Below are positions 18,022 through 55,986 of a stretch of DNA of 64,000 nt, piece after piece; the first letter of the stretch is position 1; each line of letters begins with the position of its first letter. The position numbers and the translations under genes were made by a program. The DNA comes from Patescibacteria group bacterium (GTDB taxonomy: Bacteria; Patescibacteriota; Minisyncoccia; Phycocordibacterales; JAKAEA01): NCBI GenBank assembly GCA_040387855.1, contig JAZKCY010000001.1, positions 632,793 through 696,792 on the forward strand, read 5' to 3'. The notes beneath the pieces are model-generated. The model was not told where the DNA came from and made no database searches. It saw only the letters and a program-made list of their open reading frames with translations.

Positions 18022-18771
18022 TTATAGCTCGATTTTGTTGAATTGGTATATACCAATGAGTACGGTAACCACTGAAACTCCAAGAAGAACTGAAATACTT
18101 ACAACTGGTGAAAAAGCACTAGCACCGCTAAATGCATATCTCATACTATCTACGCCGTATGTGAGTGGATTTACTTTCGTGATATATGAAAGTACAGCAG
18201 GTAAATTATCAACTGGGAAGAGCGCCCCTGAAAGATAGAATAATGGCTGAATAATAAAATTGAAAATTAATGGGAAACCCTGCATATCTTCAAGCCGTGC
18301 AGCAATTGCGGCTCCCAATGCTGAAAACAGAAATGAAACAAGCAACATTATCAATAGACCCACAGGAAGCATTGCCAAACTATGTGGTCGAAATCCAGCA
18401 ATAAGTGTTACAAGAAATACTAATAATCCTTGAATTGCAGCGACACTCATACCACCCAATGTTTTTCCCATAAAGATTTGAAAGCGAGATACAGGAGCAA
18501 CAAACGTTTCTTTGAGGAACCCAAATTGCTTATCCCAAATAATTTCCATTCCCGTAAAAATAGAACTAAAGAGCACCGTCATGGCAATAATACCTGGAGC
18601 GATAAACTGTATATAATCCCCTCCACCTGTGGCAGATGAATACATAGGACTTAATCCAAAACCGAAAGCAAAAAGGAAAATAACAGGCTGGCCTAGGGCG
18701 CCAATCACACTCGCCTTCTTACGAATAAATCGCTTTAACTGTCGAATCCACAAAATATATATAGCATTCAT
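18022..18771 (-). CDS. ABC-2 family transporter permease
   Basis: Six hydrophobic helices in ABC-2 layout. A 3-nt gap separates it from the upstream ATPase gene. Confidence 0.8.
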   Translation of the reverse strand: MNAIYILWIRQLKRFIRKKASVIGALGQPVIFLFAFGFGLSPMYSSATGGGDYIQFIAPGIIAMTVLFSSIFTGMEIIWDKQFGFLKETFVAPVSRFQIFMGKTLGGMSVAAIQGLLVFLVTLIAGFRPHSLAMLPVGLLIMLLVSFLFSALGAAIAARLEDMQGFPLIFNFIIQPLFYLSGALFPVDNLPAVLSYITKVNPLTYGVDSMRYAFSGASAFSPVVSISVLLGVSVVTVLIGIYQFNKIEL

Positions 18772-18776
18772 AATTT

Positions 18777-19556
18777 TTACATTTTTGAAACTCCACGTAA
18801 TGTGCCCTTACTAAAGTTTGAAGCTTCTTCTCGAATCTGATTTCCTGTTAATGCAATAAATGCATCCTCCAAATTATCTTTCCCTGCTTTCTTTCGAATT
18901 TCCTCTGGACTACCTTGAGTAATTATTTTTCCATGATCGATAATAGCAATCTTTGTTGCCATTCGTTCTACTTCTTCCATATGGTGAGTCGTAAAGAAAA
19001 TTGTAACGTTTTCTTCTTTATTTAGATTATGAATGTAATTCCAAATATGATTTCGAGTTTGAGGATCAAGACCAATTGTTGGTTCATCTAAAAAGAGCAC
19101 TTTTGGATGATGAAGCAAACCTCGAGCAATTTCCAATCGTCGCTTCATACCTCCTGAAAATGTCTTAATGAAATTATCTTTCTTATCAGTAAGCTCTACT
19201 AGTTGAAGGAGCTTTTTTATTCTATCTGTATATTGCTCTTTTGTGAGACCATACAAAATCGCATGAAATTGCATGTTTTCATAGGCAGTAAGTTCATTAT
19301 CAAGACTAGGGTCTTGAAAAACAATTCCAAATGACTTTCGAGTCATACTTGGATTTTCAGTCACATTATGACCATCAAGAAAAATCTGACCTTGTGTTGG
19401 ATGAAGCAAAGTCGTTAACATCTTAATTGTTGTAGACTTACCTGCGCCGTTTGGGCCTAAGAATGCAAAAACCTCTCCTTTTTTTACTGTAAATGACACA
19501 TCATCTACAGCAGTAAAATTACCGAACTTTTTTGTTACGTTTTTTACTTCTATCAT
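18777..19556 (-). CDS. ABC transporter ATP-binding protein
   Basis: Walker A GPNGAGKST, signature SGGMKRR, Walker B LFLDEPT. Confidence 0.9.
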   Translation of the reverse strand: MIEVKNVTKKFGNFTAVDDVSFTVKKGEVFAFLGPNGAGKSTTIKMLTTLLHPTQGQIFLDGHNVTENPSMTRKSFGIVFQDPSLDNELTAYENMQFHAILYGLTKEQYTDRIKKLLQLVELTDKKDNFIKTFSGGMKRRLEIARGLLHHPKVLFLDEPTIGLDPQTRNHIWNYIHNLNKEENVTIFFTTHHMEEVERMATKIAIIDHGKIITQGSPEEIRKKAGKDNLEDAFIALTGNQIREEASNFSKGTLRGVSKM

Positions 19557-31965: not shown

Positions 31966-32739
31966 ATGACCAAAGCCACGGCTTCAGCGTCGATTCCCAC
32001 CACCACCACTCTCAACCTCCGTGACTTCGAGGTCCCCCACCCGACCAGCCGCGACAACTTCGTCGTCAGCGTCGGCATCGGGACCAAGAGCCTCGACGAC
32101 AACGGCTTCGTGACCGACAACATGCCGTTCATCGAGCAGGTCCAGCGGCGGGCACGTCGCCACACCTCCGAGGGAGTGGCGCACGCTATCGGAGACATGA
32201 CCATCAGCTACCTCGACCGCCGCATCCGTCAGGTCGTGATCGAGGTCAAGAACACTGCCAGCCGCTTCACCCTGAAGCAGCCGAAAGTGCTCGAGCTCGA
32301 CCCACAGCCCAGCCTGCCGCAAGGGTTCGACACGTTCCGGATCGATGGCCTCTCTGTGGAGGCAGAGCTGAGCGACAACCACGTGTGCGGTGGGTACGAC
32401 GGCCAGTTCCGCTGCGACCTGAGGTATACTGCCGCCGACGGGAAGAACCGCTCCACCGCGATCACCGACGTGATCCGACGCGCCTTCCAGAGCAAGACCT
32501 ACACGGCGAGCTGCGAGCAGCTCACCCAGGGCATCGTCTACCAGGCATGCCAGGTCTTGGGCAGCCAGGGGCTCCACGTCATCGGTCGGGTCTACAACCT
32601 GACCGGCTACGCCGAGACCCACTGGAACTCCAGGCTCGTGGTACCGGAGATGCCGCGAGAGTCAACCTGTGGCGAGGTGCGCGAGTCCAAGCCGTCCAGG
32701 TCCTCGAGCTCCAGCGAACGCAGCATGAGCTGGTGCTGA
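31966..32739 (+). CDS. hypothetical protein encoded in a high-GC island (foreign composition)
   Basis: I counted 40/60 G+C at 32041-32100, against 16/60 at 601-660. SD TAAGGGA before the ATG; a host-like terminator follows. The protein is not Lys/Ile/Asn-biased like the neighbours. No motif recognised. Confidence 0.6.
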   Translation: MTKATASASIPTTTTLNLRDFEVPHPTSRDNFVVSVGIGTKSLDDNGFVTDNMPFIEQVQRRARRHTSEGVAHAIGDMTISYLDRRIRQVVIEVKNTASRFTLKQPKVLELDPQPSLPQGFDTFRIDGLSVEAELSDNHVCGGYDGQFRCDLRYTAADGKNRSTAITDVIRRAFQSKTYTASCEQLTQGIVYQACQVLGSQGLHVIGRVYNLTGYAETHWNSRLVVPEMPRESTCGEVRESKPSRSSSSSERSMSWC

Positions 32740-33607: not shown

Positions 33608-34156
33608 TTACGGTAGTTTATGATCAAGATTATTTTTCAACCATACCAACGTATCATATCCATTCAATACCCGATCTTCTTTTTTTACTCCCATAGTTTG
33701 TAGGAATTCAAATAACTCATCTTGCACTTTATTAGAATCCTCATCAGTAATCTTTTCTACTTCAACAAACGAGCCCAATCCTTCTACCTCATCAAGACAA
33801 ATTTCGTAATCCAAATAATTGGTTTTCTGACGAGTCTTTTTTACCTGCACTTCCGGACGGAATCCTAGGAATGTAATAATATCCTGAAGCTGTGATGCAT
33901 CATTTACTATAATTTCTCGTTCTATAGAACTAAGCTCTTCGCCTTTTTTATAGGTAAAGATAATCTGTCCTTTTGCTTTTCGAATGCGCAGAAAAGAATC
34001 TCCTGGACTAAATTGAATAAATGGTCGATCATAATTTATAAAAATAGTATCCTCTTGAGTAACAGGTTCTGAAAGAGTGCAGCCCAAAGCAATAAGGCCT
34101 TCTTTAAGTCTTTCAAAATCTCCCACCTTTGCCTTTACTTCGATCTCTTTTTTCAT
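33608..34156 (-). CDS. CYTH-domain protein (class IV adenylyl cyclase / triphosphate tunnel metalloenzyme family)
   Basis: N-terminal ExExK (EIEVKAKV), then R.R.K.G further on, and an acidic EVEGLGSFVEVEK near the C-terminus. Confidence 0.75.
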   Translation of the reverse strand: MKKEIEVKAKVGDFERLKEGLIALGCTLSEPVTQEDTIFINYDRPFIQFSPGDSFLRIRKAKGQIIFTYKKGEELSSIEREIIVNDASQLQDIITFLGFRPEVQVKKTRQKTNYLDYEICLDEVEGLGSFVEVEKITDEDSNKVQDELFEFLQTMGVKKEDRVLNGYDTLVWLKNNLDHKLP

Positions 34157-34229: not shown

Positions 34230-34925
34230 CTACAGCACGATCACCACGATGGGCACCGTCTTCTGCCACCCGATGACCAGCTTCCACCCCTTGCGGAAGC
34301 ACACCTTCGACCACGGCCCGGCCGCTCGGAGCAAGCCGTTGACAGTCGGGAACTCGTGAGCGATCGACTGCATCAGCAGCTCGTGGAGGAAAGGCTCCTC
34401 CTCGACCAGCTGGTGCATCAGATCCATCTTGCGGGATCCCAGGTGACCACGGCTGTCCAACTGCTCGTTGAGGGTGTTGAGCCGGTTGCACACCCCTCGA
34501 TAGACGCGGTAGAGCCGGCGGAGGTTCGGCGACATGACGCCGACTTCCACTTCCATGCCCATCATCTCGCGCTTAGGCCCGATGTTGATGTCGGCACCGT
34601 GCATGCGCTCGGCGACATTCTGGACCTTGTGGATCTGCGAGAGGGTGAGTTTGATGCACGTCTCCAGCGTCGCGATCTGCTCGCTGACGACCAGCGCGGT
34701 GTCGACGGATACCTGCTCGAATGGATAGCCGACGAAGTAGTTGTCGTTGGGGATGATCGTAAGGTCGACCATCCGAAACAACAACAAGGTCCGCTGTTGC
34801 CACGTGAGATTCTCCCGAAGACGCAGCAGAAGCTGATCCATCGCCTGGGTCATCACCCGCTTCCTCGGCATGAACCAGTGGGGCCTCCGTCGAGATCGGG
34901 TCTGTCTTCGCGTTTGAGTCTGCAT
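34230..34925 (-). CDS. hypothetical protein with Arg-rich N-terminus, encoded in a high-GC island
   Basis: I counted 36/60 G+C at 34561-34620. GGAGG SD 8 nt before the ATG at 34925 (MQTQTRRQTRSRRRP…). The track ORF extends to 34961 with no SD. The antisense ORF 34356-34973 has a GC-shadow composition. Confidence 0.5.
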   Translation of the reverse strand: MQTQTRRQTRSRRRPHWFMPRKRVMTQAMDQLLLRLRENLTWQQRTLLLFRMVDLTIIPNDNYFVGYPFEQVSVDTALVVSEQIATLETCIKLTLSQIHKVQNVAERMHGADINIGPKREMMGMEVEVGVMSPNLRRLYRVYRGVCNRLNTLNEQLDSRGHLGSRKMDLMHQLVEEEPFLHELLMQSIAHEFPTVNGLLRAAGPWSKVCFRKGWKLVIGWQKTVPIVVIVL

Positions 34926-35056
34926 TGCGATTCCTCCGGTTGCAGGGTTAGATTGGAACATGAGCTACGTTAGCTCAGCGGTTGAGTACGATACCATATA
35001 TATCCAACATGTCAACATGGATATATTATTGTGTCAAATTGCGATAAAATACCAAC

Positions 35057-44209: not shown

Positions 44210-44764
44210 CTATCTCTTTTCAAACGCCATCATAAACATTCCAGGTGATTCAACTATTTCAGTTTTCTTTAGCACATCTTTAAGAAATAATTCTATAATT
44301 TCTTTTGCCTTAGATACTTCAGTTCTATCTTCCACATCTATTTCAGCCTCAGTAAAAAATCGCATACTAGGAGAGTGATCAAACTTTACACTATCTATAG
44401 TTAGGCTTATGGGAGTGCTTTGGTATTCTCCAGCAAACCATTCTCTATCTTTTATTATTTTTATAGCATCAGGATATTGTGCTATCACAGATTTAAATTC
44501 TGGTTCTGTAACTTCATGTTCATTCTCTCTTCGAGCCGGTTGATCATCTACAATTTCCCAAATCTTTTCTGTATAAATATATTTCCCTGCTTCCTCTCGG
44601 TAGCGCTTTAAATCATATCCCTTATATTGAGACTTTTTAGCTTCAATATAATAGTCATTTTGTGGAGTCATACCCTTAGCAACAAAACCTCGCGCTTTAA
44701 ATTCAGCAATGAGATTTTCTTTGTCTTCTGCAGTAAGCTCTACTTTTAGTTCAACTTCGTACAT
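44210..44764 (-). CDS. CYTH-domain protein (second paralog)
   Basis: Begins MYEVELKVELT (ExExK) and has an acidic EAEIDVED near the C-terminus. The track ORF runs to 44851, but that extension lies in the foreign high-GC segment and overlaps the ABC gene. Confidence 0.65.
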   Translation of the reverse strand: MYEVELKVELTAEDKENLIAEFKARGFVAKGMTPQNDYYIEAKKSQYKGYDLKRYREEAGKYIYTEKIWEIVDDQPARRENEHEVTEPEFKSVIAQYPDAIKIIKDREWFAGEYQSTPISLTIDSVKFDHSPSMRFFTEAEIDVEDRTEVSKAKEIIELFLKDVLKKTEIVESPGMFMMAFEKR

Positions 44765-44808
44765 ATATAAATCATAGCATAAAAAAAGAGCATCACGAGG
44801 ATGCTCTG

Positions 44809-46602
44809 TTACCCTACCACTTCCGTGGGTTGGGTGTTGTACTGCTGCCACAACACTAAGAATTCAGGACACGTACGGATGAGCTGTGCCAACGTGCCGG
44901 TAGCGACCAATTGCCCCTCATGAAAGAAGTGAATCACATCAAACATGTGGAGTAGGTGCAGCCGATGAATTGACGAGATCACCGTCTTATCCAAGAACGC
45001 GTTGAAGATGTTGGTGTACACCTTCTTCTCTGTAGCCGTATCCAAGCTCGATGTGGGTTCATCGAGTAGCACGACCTCCTTGTCGTGACAGGCCAGGAGC
45101 CCGCGTGCAAGCGCCAGGCGCTGCTTTTGGCCACCTGAGAGATTGACTCCGCGCTCCTTGAGGGACGAATCTAGTCCTTTCGGCAACAAAGCGGCAACAT
45201 CGGTGAAGCACGCCATGTCGGTGTAACGACGGACCAAGTCCGAATCGTACTCCGCACCGAGGGTGATGTTTTCAATCACCGTCGTCCCAAAGATGTCGGG
45301 ATCCTGCGGCAAAAGTCCAATTGCTCGGCAAATGCCATCAAACCCGTCTTCGATTTCGTGATCATCCACAAAGAGTTTCAAGCTCTGCGGACGATGGAGA
45401 CCTCGTACGACTTTGAGCAATGTCGACTTGCCGCTTCCACTTGCTCCCACAAGTGCAACGCGCGACCCACGTGTGATGTCGAACGCTACATTTGCCAAGT
45501 GTAGTCCCGTACCATTATCTGCGTACGAGAAGTTGAGATCCCTCACTTCCATGCGTTGCCAATCCTTTCGCAACACATGGTTAGCAAGGTTATCTTCTTT
45601 GAAGTCGTCAGCCACTTCCTCGGCATTCGCGATGCGTGATGTTCCCACCACGACATCTTTGTACATGCCGGTGAAGCGAAAGAAAACTTCGCTCATTTCA
45701 TCCAAGTACTTGATGAGGATGTAGACCGTGCCCACGAGCACTGCCTTCGGTGTTTCCATATGCTGCCAAACGTACAGCCCCAAGACAAGCATTGTCATGG
45801 CGGCGGTACAGAAGGTAGTAAGGAACCACTTTATCTCGTTAAGCGTTGTGTTCCGCTTAAAGAGATCATACGGCTTGTCGACCCTGTGACAGATCGCCTC
45901 GAACACCAGTCGCTCAACGCGCAGAATGATCACGGTTGCAATGTTTGAGATTGTGTCAAAAACATTCTCCGAAATCTCGTTCTCTGCTTTGTTGAGTTTC
46001 CGATATTGAGGGATCATCACTCGATCGAACTTGATCGTGAAGAATATGGACAGACACATCATTCCGACGACGATTGGAATCGACATCGGAAAAAAGTATC
46101 CGAGCATAATGAAACTCCCCACGAGCTGTATGAAGGCATAGACGATCTGGAACGACATCGACGAAAACTGATAGAGTGCCGAAGCACCTTTTTCAATCTT
46201 GTCGATGGTGTCGCCAGAGTGATGCTCCACATGCCATTCCAATGGCAGGGTCATCGTGCCTTTGAGCAAGTACTTCCGGTAGTTCGCACGGGACTTAAAC
46301 GCATTCAGGGTTTCCCAAACGCGCGCAGGACCGTGAAAAGCCCAGAAGACCATCTTGGTCACAAACATCCACACCAACAACTTGATGAGTGTGGGCATGC
46401 TGTCGACGGTGATTCCCTCAGCCTGGATCTCATTCATGATCTTCGCCCCCAACAGAGGCAAGAAAAAGAGCATGATCGAGATCGCAATGATGAAGAAGCC
46501 CCAGTACAGGGCCACACTCTTGCGGTTGCCCGCTGAGTAGTGCCACGTCTTCCAGAACAGGTACACGAACGGATTTCCGTTCCTGTGAGGCTTCTTGAAC
46601 AT
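44809..46602 (-). CDS. fused TMD-NBD ABC exporter, high-GC (foreign composition)
   Basis: Six N-terminal TM helices. Walker A GASGSGKST, signature LSGGQKQRLALARGL, Walker B VVLLDEPTSSLD. I counted 40/60 G+C at 45061-45120. AAAGGA SD upstream of the ATG. Confidence 0.85.
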   Translation of the reverse strand: MFKKPHRNGNPFVYLFWKTWHYSAGNRKSVALYWGFFIIAISIMLFFLPLLGAKIMNEIQAEGITVDSMPTLIKLLVWMFVTKMVFWAFHGPARVWETLNAFKSRANYRKYLLKGTMTLPLEWHVEHHSGDTIDKIEKGASALYQFSSMSFQIVYAFIQLVGSFIMLGYFFPMSIPIVVGMMCLSIFFTIKFDRVMIPQYRKLNKAENEISENVFDTISNIATVIILRVERLVFEAICHRVDKPYDLFKRNTTLNEIKWFLTTFCTAAMTMLVLGLYVWQHMETPKAVLVGTVYILIKYLDEMSEVFFRFTGMYKDVVVGTSRIANAEEVADDFKEDNLANHVLRKDWQRMEVRDLNFSYADNGTGLHLANVAFDITRGSRVALVGASGSGKSTLLKVVRGLHRPQSLKLFVDDHEIEDGFDGICRAIGLLPQDPDIFGTTVIENITLGAEYDSDLVRRYTDMACFTDVAALLPKGLDSSLKERGVNLSGGQKQRLALARGLLACHDKEVVLLDEPTSSLDTATEKKVYTNIFNAFLDKTVISSIHRLHLLHMFDVIHFFHEGQLVATGTLAQLIRTCPEFLVLWQQYNTQPTEVVG

Positions 46603-46648
46603 TCGAGATTCCTTTCGAGATGCGTGTTATATGGCTATGGTAAAGAAC

Positions 46649-46678
46649 AAAACATCATGCCGGGTGGCATGATGTTTT
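46649..46678. repeat. perfect 13-bp inverted repeat in the 254-bp spacer upstream of the ABC exporter
   Basis: AAAACATCATGCC-gggt-GGCATGATGTTTT. A half-site-like copy TAAAACATCATACC lies ~65 nt downstream. A second 8-bp inverted repeat ATTTGATT…AATCAAAT lies in between. Confidence 0.6.
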
Positions 46679-46856
46679 AAAAATTTGATTTAATGGGAGA
46701 AATCAAATACTTAAAACATCATACCTGTTTAAAAGAAAGAGCGCATAAATACCACCCACGGCCTTTCGTGGATTGGTAGAACTATTTCGATTAAACATGT
46801 TTGATGTCATGATATTGAAACAATACCACACATTAGTACAACATGCAAGCACCAAA

Positions 46857-47249
46857 TTAAAGATATGTCCACTCCCCGTCCAAATAGTTTGCTATATGAT
46901 TTCCCGTGGTTGGCATTCCATCAACATCATATTCAACCGTGTGAATTGAGGCAGCAAAACGGCATCCTGGTGCCACCTTCGCATTAGGATCTTTATAATC
47001 ATTTTTTGCCTTTTGATAACTATATTCAGTCTTGCTACCATCCTCGTTTATTACTTCTACTTCATAAAAGCTCAAACCAGCATCGTCAGTTTTTGTTCGC
47101 AGTTCAGTATATTTCTTACCCTGCAAAAGAGTACCAAATACACTTCTTATTTCTTCAATACTGGGAAACTTTTCTGCATTTTCTTCAACTCGATTCCAGT
47201 TAGTTTCAAAATTATCAGTCATGAATTTTAATATTATTATATTCCACAC
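46857..47249 (-). CDS. hypothetical protein
   Basis: 130-aa ORF that overlaps the upstream gene's stop by 13 nt. No motif. Confidence 0.4.
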   Translation of the reverse strand: MWNIIILKFMTDNFETNWNRVEENAEKFPSIEEIRSVFGTLLQGKKYTELRTKTDDAGLSFYEVEVINEDGSKTEYSYQKAKNDYKDPNAKVAPGCRFAASIHTVEYDVDGMPTTGNHIANYLDGEWTYL

Positions 47250-47677
47250 TTAGCATTCACTGTCACATCCCCCACATTTGAAGCTGTAATAGTATAACCA
47301 AAACAAGTAGTTGGTATATAGGTCAGAGAGTAAAATGTCTTACCATCTTTAATTTCTGTTTTTACCTCTTCCAAAACCCTATGCCAATTCACTTTAGAAT
47401 TTTGATCTTTAAAATTATCTAATCTCAAAACATTATTTTCATTGTTATCTTTAAGTAAGAATTCTCTTTCTTTCAAGAATGTAACAAAATGCTCTTTAGA
47501 TTTTATATTGATGCTAATTTTGTAAGTAAAGACAGAAGCATTCTGTGATGTCTCAACAGACCGTGGGGTGTTCTCAATAAATGTCTCTTGATATGTGATA
47601 TAAATACCCACACTTACAGCTAGCACTGCACATAAAGATAAGATAATAGGAGCAAAACGATGTTGAAGTAATTTCAT
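47237..47677 (-). CDS. hypothetical secreted/anchored protein
   Basis: N-terminal hydrophobic helix; 146 aa. Confidence 0.45.
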   Translation of the reverse strand: MKLLQHRFAPIILSLCAVLAVSVGIYITYQETFIENTPRSVETSQNASVFTYKISINIKSKEHFVTFLKEREFLLKDNNENNVLRLDNFKDQNSKVNWHRVLEEVKTEIKDGKTFYSLTYIPTTCFGYTITASNVGDVTVNAKCGI

Positions 47678-47682
47678 AGATT

Positions 47683-48147
47683 CTAATTATACCCAAAAAT
47701 CGCCCCTTTTATTCTTTTTAGTAAATGATCAACATCTCTTTTAGTCTTAAGTGTAATTCCAAATCGTGTTGAAGTATTTTCAAGCAACGTCTGCATGCCC
47801 TCTTTTCCGAGCACTGCAGAATTTGAGGCAGCATTGCCCGTAAAGACAAGCTTAAAGTTCTTCATAGAATACTCCCCCTGAGCAGTAGTAACATTTGTAA
47901 AATCGATTGCAATAAGATTTGGATATACTTTCATGAGTGCAAACCCATCAACTCCCCCATCTAAACCCAATTTTTCGTAGTCTTTGAGCGAAGATTTCAC
48001 TCCTGCTGTTATTGATTCAACAAAGTATGCATGCAAAGATTCAGGACTTTCTGTAACTTGCGGCGCATCTGGTTGGTTGAGCAGTAGTGTTGCGCCCACA
48101 CAAAAAACAGCAACGACTAAAACTATACCAATCCAAAGTTTCTTCAT
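47683..48147 (-). CDS. hypothetical secreted protein
   Basis: Signal peptide MKKLWIGIVLVVAVFCVGA; 154 aa. Confidence 0.45.
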   Translation of the reverse strand: MKKLWIGIVLVVAVFCVGATLLLNQPDAPQVTESPESLHAYFVESITAGVKSSLKDYEKLGLDGGVDGFALMKVYPNLIAIDFTNVTTAQGEYSMKNFKLVFTGNAASNSAVLGKEGMQTLLENTSTRFGITLKTKRDVDHLLKRIKGAIFGYN

Positions 48148-55257: not shown

Positions 55258-55986
55258 CTACACAGTCACGAGATCACTCCCCACAAGCTCGGTAGCTTCG
55301 TCGGCTAGCACACTCACGGCGCTTGCCGGTGCGTACCGAATGAGGATGAGCTCGTATGCGCAGCCGGATGTCACGAAGGCATCGTCCACGGGCATCACGG
55401 CTTCGACGTCTTGGTACCTTTCGTGATTGCGAGGAAGCGGCGGCTTCTGGGCTTTGCGAGCCCACTCGTCGATTGTCTCGCGGAACACGGCGATGACGAT
55501 GGTGCCCACAGCAGTCGTCTCACGAAACATCCTTGCAACGTGTGACTGCTGATTGCCCTTGGCGACAAACGGTATGAGCGTGCGTTTTTTGCGCCAGCCC
55601 TTCACCGTCCCGCCGTTTTCTTCGCCAACGTTGAAGATGTAGTTGGCTGTGTCGTCCCAGCAGACCGCTGAGTCAACATCTTCATACACGGGCACGATCT
55701 CGCTGTCGCTCACCGACAAGCCGTCGACGCCCATCGAGCACTGGTGGCTCGCAACAGGATCGATGACGCCGATCACAATCTCAAACTGCTCGCCCTGCTC
55801 GAGAGGGATGTAGCGGAAGTACCTATCCGCATCTCGGGGCCCGATTCCCACCACATCAGCGAGAGCCTTTGGTTGGAAAAATCTCACCTTGCGTACAGGA
55901 TCGCCACGCGCAGTGACAACGTTGATTCCCACGGTGATGAGATCACCGCGAAATACATCGGTGCCATTGGGGTTGCTTGTGTTCAC
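55258..55986 (-). CDS. hypothetical protein encoded in a high-GC island (GTG start)
   Basis: I counted 37/60 G+C at 55441-55500. GTG start is preceded by an AGGAG SD 7 nt upstream. No motif recognised. Confidence 0.5.
   Translation of the reverse strand: MNTSNPNGTDVFRGDLITVGINVVTARGDPVRKVRFFQPKALADVVGIGPRDADRYFRYIPLEQGEQFEIVIGVIDPVASHQCSMGVDGLSVSDSEIVPVYEDVDSAVCWDDTANYIFNVGEENGGTVKGWRKKRTLIPFVAKGNQQSHVARMFRETTAVGTIVIAVFRETIDEWARKAQKPPLPRNHERYQDVEAVMPVDDAFVTSGCAYELILIRYAPASAVSVLADEATELVGSDLVTV

Follow-up and report, generated by a model that had tools for sequence, protein, structure and literature searches.

A probable ribosome-mediated transcription attenuator in the leader of an ABC exporter gene of Patescibacteria

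Background

What is the function of the 254-bp spacer that precedes an ATP-binding cassette (ABC) exporter gene in a member of the Patescibacteria? The spacer lies in a 64,000-nucleotide (nt) stretch of contig JAZKCY010000001.1 (positions 632,793 to 696,792, forward strand), which was analyzed at its full length and is referred to below as the window, and the original prediction had singled it out for a perfect 13-bp palindrome, read as either the operator of a dimeric regulator or a bidirectional terminator. The spacer extends, as described there, from the stop codon of the minus-strand open-reading frame (ORF) 46857-47249 to the ATG of the exporter gene at 46602 (46603-46856). The palindrome, AAAACATCATGCC/GGGT/GGCATGATGTTTT, was recovered at 46649-46661 and 46666-46678 with 100% complementarity, the half-site-like repeat was found as a third copy (AAAACATCATACC, 46713-46725) with one mismatch and a start-to-start spacing of 64, and a second inverted repeat was present as a hairpin at 46754-46773. 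A single 13-mer with two or fewer mismatches is not rare (4 found, 3.0 expected); here three copies are packed within 77 nt in the minus-strand order A, A′, A, and the palindrome is unique in the window.

Patescibacteria have tiny genomes with few recognizable transcription factors, and to our knowledge almost nothing is known of gene regulation in this group. The analysis presented here leads us to believe that the exporter gene is probably controlled by ribosome-mediated transcription attenuation, in which an early stall of a ribosome on a short leader ORF would give read-through. The spacer itself would probably be the 5′ leader of a self-contained cassette consisting of promoter, leader, ABC gene, and terminator (46848 to 44787, minus strand). 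A conserved attenuator read by ribosomes would place at least one patescibacterial gene family under RNA-level control, would be a candidate for a new RNA family with strong covariation, and would offer a first regulatory handle on an uncharacterized exporter that is widespread in Patescibacteria.

Results

Two mutually exclusive helices in the leader transcript

In the minus-strand transcript, the palindrome would form an intrinsic terminator with a stem of 13-14 bp and a 4-nt loop, followed by UUUUGUUCUUU (46678-46639, minus strand; detected as a terminator-like site with 14 pairs). A longer antiterminator helix, in which 46725-46700 pairs with 46691-46666, competes with it, and its 5′ arm is the half-site-like repeat. 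Segment 2 is common to both helices, which are therefore mutually exclusive (the numbered segments are given in Table 1). An intrinsic terminator, an antiterminator sharing one of its arms, and a short ORF overlapping the switch segments are all present, and these are among the parts by which an attenuator is recognized. The 281-nt minus-strand RNA folded with a z score of -6.2, and none of 200 shuffled sequences folded as well. Many pairs of the helices are G-U pairs, which are possible only in the minus-strand transcript; this fixes the strand of the element and argues against a site in DNA.

Covariation was scored on A2, an alignment of 18 sequences of the element core. The antiterminator was paired in 85.4% of the alignment cells, compared to 31-46% in slid-register controls, with compensatory changes at 16 of its 26 pairs, while the terminator was paired in 94.4% of cells, compared to 33-59% in the controls, with compensatory changes at 6 of 11 pairs. 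RNAalifold found the antiterminator without hints, and 12 of the 21 pairs that it predicted were compensatory. On average, the antiterminator has a stability of -20.6 kcal/mol and the terminator one of -15.9 kcal/mol. In the nearest relatives of the exporter (L081 and L082, 66% and 65% identity), which have upstream spacers of ~330-350 nt with an equivalent element, the window stem CATCATGCC/GGCATGATG is replaced by CATCGTGC/GCACGATG, a compensated change. More distant orthologs have stems such as CAGCGTGCC, CGCCGCGC, CACCGCG, or GTGCCGCG, with both partner arms changing to match.

A predicted promoter and a maintained leader ORF

Between the upstream genes and the switch segments lie a predicted promoter of the sigma-70 type and a 35-codon leader ORF, which was missed by gene callers here and in most of the related loci for which gene calls were seen; in one related locus (L089) a single gene caller called it independently. 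Each of the 18 leaders has a good -10 hexamer, preceded at 16-18 nt by a -35 box and followed at 8-10 nt by an ATG, and the orthologous leaders carry a TTGACA or TTGC.. box at the equivalent -35 place. This spacing between the -10 box and the ATG is too short for a Shine-Dalgarno site, and the leader mRNA is therefore probably leaderless or near-leaderless, with a predicted transcription start 1-3 nt before the ORF.

The ORF that begins at this promoter-proximal ATG is 26-46 codons long, and in every one of the 18 leaders, its stop codon falls in the 3′ end of segment 1, inside a span of 10 nt. The reading frame ends in "...S-I-stop" in 15 of them, and in the remaining three, another frame ends 8-9 nt earlier. 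Over 625 codons from 17 leaders, 53 and 34 stops interrupt the two remaining frames. Conservation of the peptide is poor (mean column identity, 31%), and among the 35-codon leaders, the three codon positions have taken up similar numbers of substitutions (144/148/166), a pattern which suggests that the act of translation matters more than the peptide product. Two residues depart from this pattern, with Asn found at codon 9 in 15 of 20 leaders and Gln at codon 7 in 11 of 20; codons 7-9 read Gln-x-Asn in many orthologs and Asn-Arg-Asn in the window. Asn makes up 15% of the first 15 leader residues and 4.6% of the residues of native proteins.

The second inverted repeat lies within this ORF, and the orthologs carry a hairpin of other sequence at the equivalent place. 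The ORF body was more structured than shuffled sequences (mean z of -2.2, with 12 of 17 below -1.5), and these lineage-specific hairpins could be pause hairpins. A further constant feature is the motif GTTCTTT or GCTCTTT, which every one of the 18 leaders carries in the stretch from the terminator to the ABC start and which has a background frequency of 0.19 per kb per strand; its last copy usually lies 29-63 nt before the ABC ATG. Its position near the ABC start is kept in two leaders (L007 and L008) that have an extra hairpin after the terminator. GTTCTTT matches TTNTTT, the consensus for NusG-dependent pausing, which contributes to control by the vmlR attenuator (PMC9226507), and by analogy it may have a role in pausing. 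An anti-Shine-Dalgarno role for the motif was also considered and is unsupported, as several orthologs carry, on inspection, CUGGAGG-type sites that are unable to pair with GTTCTTT. We know of no demonstration of NusG-dependent pausing in Patescibacteria.

Distribution and specificity of the element

A total of 95 loci around relatives of the exporter were collected, and a metagenome scan with the single protein produced just five extra loci. An equivalent layout, differing in stem sequences, precedes ABC orthologs in more than 20 other patescibacterial loci, and the hairpin is retained with the ABC gene in genomes where unrelated or oppositely oriented genes lie upstream. A2 was used to build a covariance model, which was run on the window and 90 loci, 927 kb in total, and produced 19 matches of 60-82 bits, all directly upstream of an ABC gene or of an operon of a GNAT acetyltransferase gene and an ABC gene. 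With filters off, the window contained one site at 72.8 bits, and the next best scored 13 bits. One match from outside the seed sequences (62.6 bits in L037) is a leader in front of a GNAT-ABC operon (L037:4140-4990), the GNAT gene of which gave generic sub-threshold matches only. The same gene pair occurs in L015, where the contig ends before the leader. A weaker match of 37.8 bits (L041) precedes an ABC protein with just 38% identity to the query.

No covariance-model match was found in the loci outside the Patescibacteria-type set, including those labelled as archaeal, Bacteroidota, or Melainabacteria. By inspection, diverged leaders with a promoter, a 38-46 codon ORF ending at the antiterminator arm, and a terminator were observed in L001, L090/L091, L002, and L092/L093. 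These are scored weakly or not at all by the model, indicating that the family is broader than its 19 strong matches. Rfam 15 at gathering scores identified one tRNA only in the whole window, and at E values up to 10, the spacer gave spurious microRNA and small RNA matches far below the cut-offs. No account of such an element, whether for Patescibacteria or for the Candidate Phyla Radiation, was found in the literature searched.

Predicted folding states and proposed mechanism

Folding of the window leader produced the alternative states that an attenuator would need. When the growing transcript was folded from its predicted start, segment 0 paired with the 5′ half of segment 1 once segment 1 was present, and the full free leader RNA contained this pairing together with the terminator. 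Masking nt 1-38, which mimics an early stall, gave the antiterminator and zero terminator pairs. With the stop-codon region masked, the terminator formed in the window leader, and across the family it did so in 18 of 18 members. Segment 0 is the probable 5′ arm of an anti-antiterminator, for which the evidence is weaker than for the other helices. MAFFT registers differ between sequences in this region and preclude column-wise pair counts, so that the segment 0:1 pairing and the ORF hairpin were assessed by duplex energies and shuffles. The pairing is clade-specific (for clade A, whose 5′ regions favor the segment 1 of that clade, -10.1 against -4.9 kcal/mol), and its signal relative to simple shuffles is modest, with a mean z of -1.25.

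In the mechanism that we favor, segment 0 would hold segment 1 when no ribosome is present, and the terminator would form. A ribosome that reaches the leader stop codon would cover segment 1, the terminator would again form, and the ABC gene would be left untranscribed. A ribosome stalled early would instead cover segment 0 and allow segments 1 and 2 to form the antiterminator, and the polymerase would read through into the ABC gene. Codons 7-9 of the leader are the candidate stall site. The exporter would be induced when translation is slowed, most likely by ribosome-targeting compounds and less likely by a shortage of charged tRNA. Stalling of the antibiotic type is consistent with the precedents, with a cassette that appears to be mobile, and with the L037 GNAT-ABC operon; tRNA limitation would fit the enrichment of Asn in the leader.

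Several observations weigh against this mechanism. Pairing between segments 0 and 1 is weak or absent in ~4 of 17 leaders, and masking of the early ORF abolishes the terminator at equilibrium in just 9 of 18 family members, with a tenth keeping one pair. Since early masking fails in the rest at equilibrium, the model needs kinetic, co-transcriptional folding. The free RNA of 5 of 18 relatives already favors the antiterminator. The leader ORFs contain neither a run of regulatory codons nor a recognized drug-arrest motif, and the conserved loop sequence UAAGUAUUUAA could instead be the site of a protein or a ligand. Finally, cell-wall genes flank the exporter in some genomes, which is not an obvious fit to a drug pump.

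If the leader is an attenuator, whatever stalls its ribosomes is likely to be linked to the substrate of the pump, and if the signal is an antibiotic, the family would represent an overlooked, mobile, and inducible reservoir of resistance in uncultured bacteria. A more specific scenario, which we offer tentatively and consider rather doubtful, is that of a mobile, self-regulated antibiotic-efflux module among Patescibacteria, with the leaderless peptide and its Gln7-x-Asn9 acting as a programmed-arrest sensor for a ribosome-targeting natural product of hosts or neighbors. If true, the Candidate Phyla Radiation would gain its first described inducible resistance circuit and, with it, its first described lineage-specific cis-regulatory RNA family.

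Table 1 Positions of the leader and cassette features in the window
Feature	Position	Strand	Remarks
-35 box TTGCAT	46843..46848	-	17 nt upstream of the -10 box; predicted promoter, read from sequence
Extended -10 box TGgTATTGT	46820..46828	-	last base 9 nt before the leader ATG
Leader ORF	46703..46810	-	predicted; 35 codons plus TGA, MTSNMFNRNSSTNPRKAVGGIYALFLLNRYDVLSI; start 9 nt after the -10 box
Segment 0 (GACAUCA.AC)	46799..46808	-	codons 1-4; probable 5′ arm of the anti-antiterminator, pairs with the 5′ half of segment 1; minimum free energy fold
Hairpin inside leader ORF	46754..46773	-	candidate pause hairpin
Segment 1, antiterminator 5′ arm	46700..46725	-	last 7 sense codons and stop of the leader ORF; 26 nt, 88% complementary
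Segment 2, antiterminator 3′ arm	46666..46691	-	last 13 nt (46678-46666) double as the terminator 5′ arm
Segment 3, terminator 3′ arm	46649..46661	-	ends in UUUU
GTTCTTT motif	46642..46648	-	directly after the terminator
Shine-Dalgarno region GAAAGGAA	46609..46616	-	ends 6 nt before the ABC ATG; core GGA 7 nt before
ABC exporter gene	44809..46602	-	fused transmembrane and ATPase domains, 597 aa; GC content at third codon positions (GC3) 0.667
Terminator-like hairpin and T7	44787..44807	-	directly 3′ of the ABC stop codon; 3′ end of the cassette

Alternative explanations for the spacer

The ribosome might not be what sets the switch, which could respond instead to a small ligand, as in a riboswitch, or to an RNA-binding protein at UAAGUAUUUAA, and the ORF would then be incidental. 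Such a switch would account for the competing helices, which are well supported independently, and for a leader that folds far better than shuffled sequences, and loop-proximal UAAGUAUUUAA is more conserved than pairing needs. This conservation can, however, be explained by stop codons in two frames together with pairing to segment 2. An incidental ORF also fits poorly with a frame that is open to the same end point in all 18 leaders, despite their differences in length and frame, and with a start codon held 8-10 nt from the -10 box. The region from segment 0 to segment 1 varies in sequence and length, with no conserved multi-helix aptamer, junction, or pocket, no Rfam match was obtained even at the relaxed E value, and no regulator gene is conserved nearby in the loci examined. 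We consider a ligand or protein switch unlikely.

The small ORF could alternatively encode a secreted or signalling peptide that is exported by the pump, with a leaky terminator keeping peptide mRNA well in excess of pump mRNA, an arrangement found in many bacteriocin operons. The position of the ORF directly upstream of an ABC exporter gene, its fairly constant length (26-46 aa), its hydrophobic middle segment, and the recurrent Gln7/Asn9 are all in keeping with such a peptide. Its mean column identity of only 31% is not, nor is the lack of bias toward third codon positions among the substitutions, and the three members that end in another frame have a different C-terminus. A C39 peptidase domain is lacking from the exporter, which scores below the cut-offs of all bacteriocin exporters, and a stop codon placed inside a helix that competes with the terminator would be needless for a simple leaky terminator. 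Taken together, these observations make an exported peptide improbable.

We are still less inclined to view the palindrome as a common intrinsic terminator, perhaps active in both directions, for transcripts of the small-protein genes upstream (46857-48147); a terminator of this kind had been put forward as a way of separating these three genes from the exporter. The hairpin is indeed of the terminator type, perfect, flanked by an A-run and a T-run, terminator-like on both strands, and without a second copy in the window. It lies, however, 178 nt downstream of the upstream stop codon, with a promoter and a conserved ORF in between, and it travels with the ABC gene even into genomes whose preceding genes are unrelated or lie on the other strand; the competing helix covaries, and the covariance model favors the minus strand (72.8 bits) over the plus strand (34 bits). 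The operator for a dimeric repressor that was proposed from the perfect dyad symmetry and the extra half-site 64 nt away is scarcely credible, given that orthologs keep the pairing and change the arm sequences (CATCATGCC, CAGCGTGCC, CGCCGCGC, CACCGCG), that G-U pairs of the minus-strand RNA would be mismatched half-sites in DNA, that the site is ~130-160 nt downstream of the promoter, and that no regulator gene is conserved nearby. Ribosome-mediated attenuation remains the explanation that we prefer for the spacer.

The exporter gene and its probable acquisition

The exporter was confirmed as a fused protein with an N-terminal, six-helix ABC_membrane domain (PF00664, residues 33-277) and a C-terminal ABC_tran domain (PF00005, residues 369-518), the composition of a type IV or ABCB-like half-transporter. 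Its motifs, read from the translation, are intact (Walker A, GASGSGKST; signature, LSGGQKQR; Walker B, VVLLDEPTSS; H-loop, SSIHRL), and its closest solved relatives are generic ABCB proteins. The hidden Markov model search that had been suggested for naming its subfamily yielded these two domains and no further assignment, as the protein was below the cut-off of all 25 listed NCBIfam families, with a top score of 188.8 bits against the 693 required for LssB. The named subfamilies included MsbA, CydC/D, NdvA/ChvA, HepA, LssB/HlyB, bacteriocin or NHLP exporters, and SmdAB. An exact look-up of the ABC protein returned no record. Relatives number in the hundreds at 55-66% identity, and the few that have a named source are Patescibacteria, Zambryskibacteria, or Paceibacterota. 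Most of the contigs in which the clade occurs are labelled Patescibacteria, and relatives are present in contigs that carry the label of DPANN archaea.

The exporter had been described as foreign, on account of a GC-rich composition unlike that of the ABC-2 system elsewhere in the window. By composition, this description was borne out. The gene has a GC content of 0.51 and a GC3 far above the 0.16-0.31 of native ORFs (36 ORFs of at least 200 aa that start with ATG, including the ABC-2 pair), and the ABC-2 pair itself (18022-19556; Pfam ABC2_membrane and ABC_tran) has values of 0.30 and 0.23. The step in GC content at either end of the ORF falls within a single 60-nt interval. By homology, in contrast, it is a typical patescibacterial gene, and from this combination of a foreign GC3 and typical homology, the gene was probably acquired horizontally from another patescibacterium of higher GC content. 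Neither target-site duplications nor flanking direct repeats were found at the cassette borders, and the closest relatives of the neighboring CYTH gene (69-70% identity) are in unrelated contexts that provide no empty site for comparison; it is thus the composition that argues for acquisition. Offsets in GC content between the gene and its flanks in other genomes (L001, +0.135; L029, +0.088; L012, +0.081; L026, -0.093) fit repeated transfer within the phylum. The genes beside the exporter vary from locus to locus, and the unit of promoter, leader, gene, and terminator therefore behaves as an independent cassette.

In the window, the leader is followed by one ABC gene and its own terminator, rather than by two genes as in the BmrCD arrangement. 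A second ABC gene (~600 aa) adjoins the leader-controlled gene in 3 of 10 loci (L003, L009, and L010), in two of the three on the opposite strand; ABC_membrane and ABC_tran were detected in the adjoining protein of L003 and L010 and ABC_tran alone in that of L009. L003, L010, and L094 have a class-II aminoacyl-tRNA synthetase (Asp/Lys/Asn type) beside or close to the exporter. In L094, a copy of the exporter without the leader is flanked by mraY and ftsW and has an S11 carboxypeptidase in its vicinity; a D-Ala-D-Ala ligase adjoins the exporter in L014, and M23 peptidases do so in L008 and L029. These cell-wall neighbors may hint at an envelope-related substrate. Relatives with 41-48% identity, without the bacterial leader, occur in contigs labelled Woesearchaeota, Nanohaloarchaea, or "archaeon" (L016, L019, L020, L034, L035, L038, and others; 47-48% in DPANN-labelled contigs). 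Provided that the bin labels are correct, this distribution points to exchange of the gene between archaea and episymbiotic bacteria.

Other features of the window

Downstream of the cassette is a gene with a CYTH domain (44210-44764, minus strand; Pfam PF01928), the start of which is probably the ATG at 44764 and not the listed GTG at 44851. A -10-like TATGAT ends 8 nt before this ATG without a Shine-Dalgarno site (44764-44800, minus strand), and leaderless mRNAs may therefore be common in this organism. The three small proteins encoded upstream of the spacer gave no PHROGs matches. Three single-ORF islands of high GC content stand out in the window, which has a GC content of 37.5%: 31966-32739 on the plus strand (GC 0.64, GC3 0.88), 34230-34961 on the minus strand (0.60 and 0.83), and 55258-55986 on the minus strand (0.58 and 0.69). 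None of the three ORFs had a match in Pfam, NCBIfam, PHROGs, or PADLOC, and the first and second, each compared with the third, showed no similarity to it. One homolog of the first (36% identity) was found among 5.8 billion proteins and just 21 representatives of the third among 1.84 billion. An ORF at 33608-34156 on the minus strand resembles the CYTH gene by eye only; both adjoin a GC-rich island, which may be a coincidence.

Comparison with known systems

Leader-peptide attenuators are already known, including those that precede ABC exporter genes and those with leaderless short ORFs. The feature set described here, with a leaderless ORF, a stop codon in the antiterminator arm, the GTTCTTT motif, and linkage to one ABC clade, was absent from Rfam 15 and the literature searched. 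The exporter shares the order of an ABC_membrane domain followed by an ABC_tran domain with MsbA, CydDC, NdvA, and LssB of the ABCB type, but it scores 130-190 bits against cut-offs of 330-1000 for all the named NCBIfam subfamilies and represents an uncharacterized clade.

In four-segment attenuators of the trp and erm kind, a stall on the first segment redirects folding, and a ribosome reaching the stop codon produces the "off" fold. The window folds resemble those of the Escherichia coli trp type and the ermC type in that successive segments pair as 0:1, 1:2, or 2:3. They differ from trp in that the leader has no tandem regulatory codons and from ermC in that the output would be transcription termination and not release of a ribosome-binding site, and in comparison with both, segment 0 is not clear in every family member. 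Leaderless short ORFs as first cistrons are also found in mycobacteria, where polycysteine ORFs sense ribosome pausing and control downstream genes (10.1101/834739). Those ORFs act by sequestration of the ribosome-binding site and sense cysteine through runs of Cys codons, whereas the leader described here has an intrinsic terminator and no codon run.

The vmlR leader of Bacillus subtilis has an anti-antiterminator, an antiterminator, and a terminator together with a short upstream ORF, and its TTNTTT pause motif is needed for tight control (PMC9226507). The helices are comparable to those of the window leader, in which GTTCTTT fits the same consensus; the upstream ORF of vmlR, however, has three codons and its own Shine-Dalgarno site, and the gene that it regulates encodes an ABC-F ribosome-protection factor and not a membrane pump. 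The closest resemblance is to the BmrB leader in the bmrBCD operon from B. subtilis, in the model for which efficient translation of the leader favors termination, while slowed translation and ribosome-targeting antibiotics favor read-through (PMC4191407). In both systems, a short leader ORF precedes exporter genes of the ABC_membrane and ABC_tran type, and formation of an antiterminator competes with that of an intrinsic terminator. The BmrB ORF is 53 codons long, follows a 5′ untranslated region of ~70 nt, and includes the terminator, whereas the ORFs of the window type, known here from sequence, have 26-46 codons, are probably leaderless, and end before the terminator. There is no detectable sequence relation between the leaders, and where BmrCD is a heterodimer encoded by two genes, the pump controlled by the leader described here would be the product of one gene, presumably acting as a homodimer.

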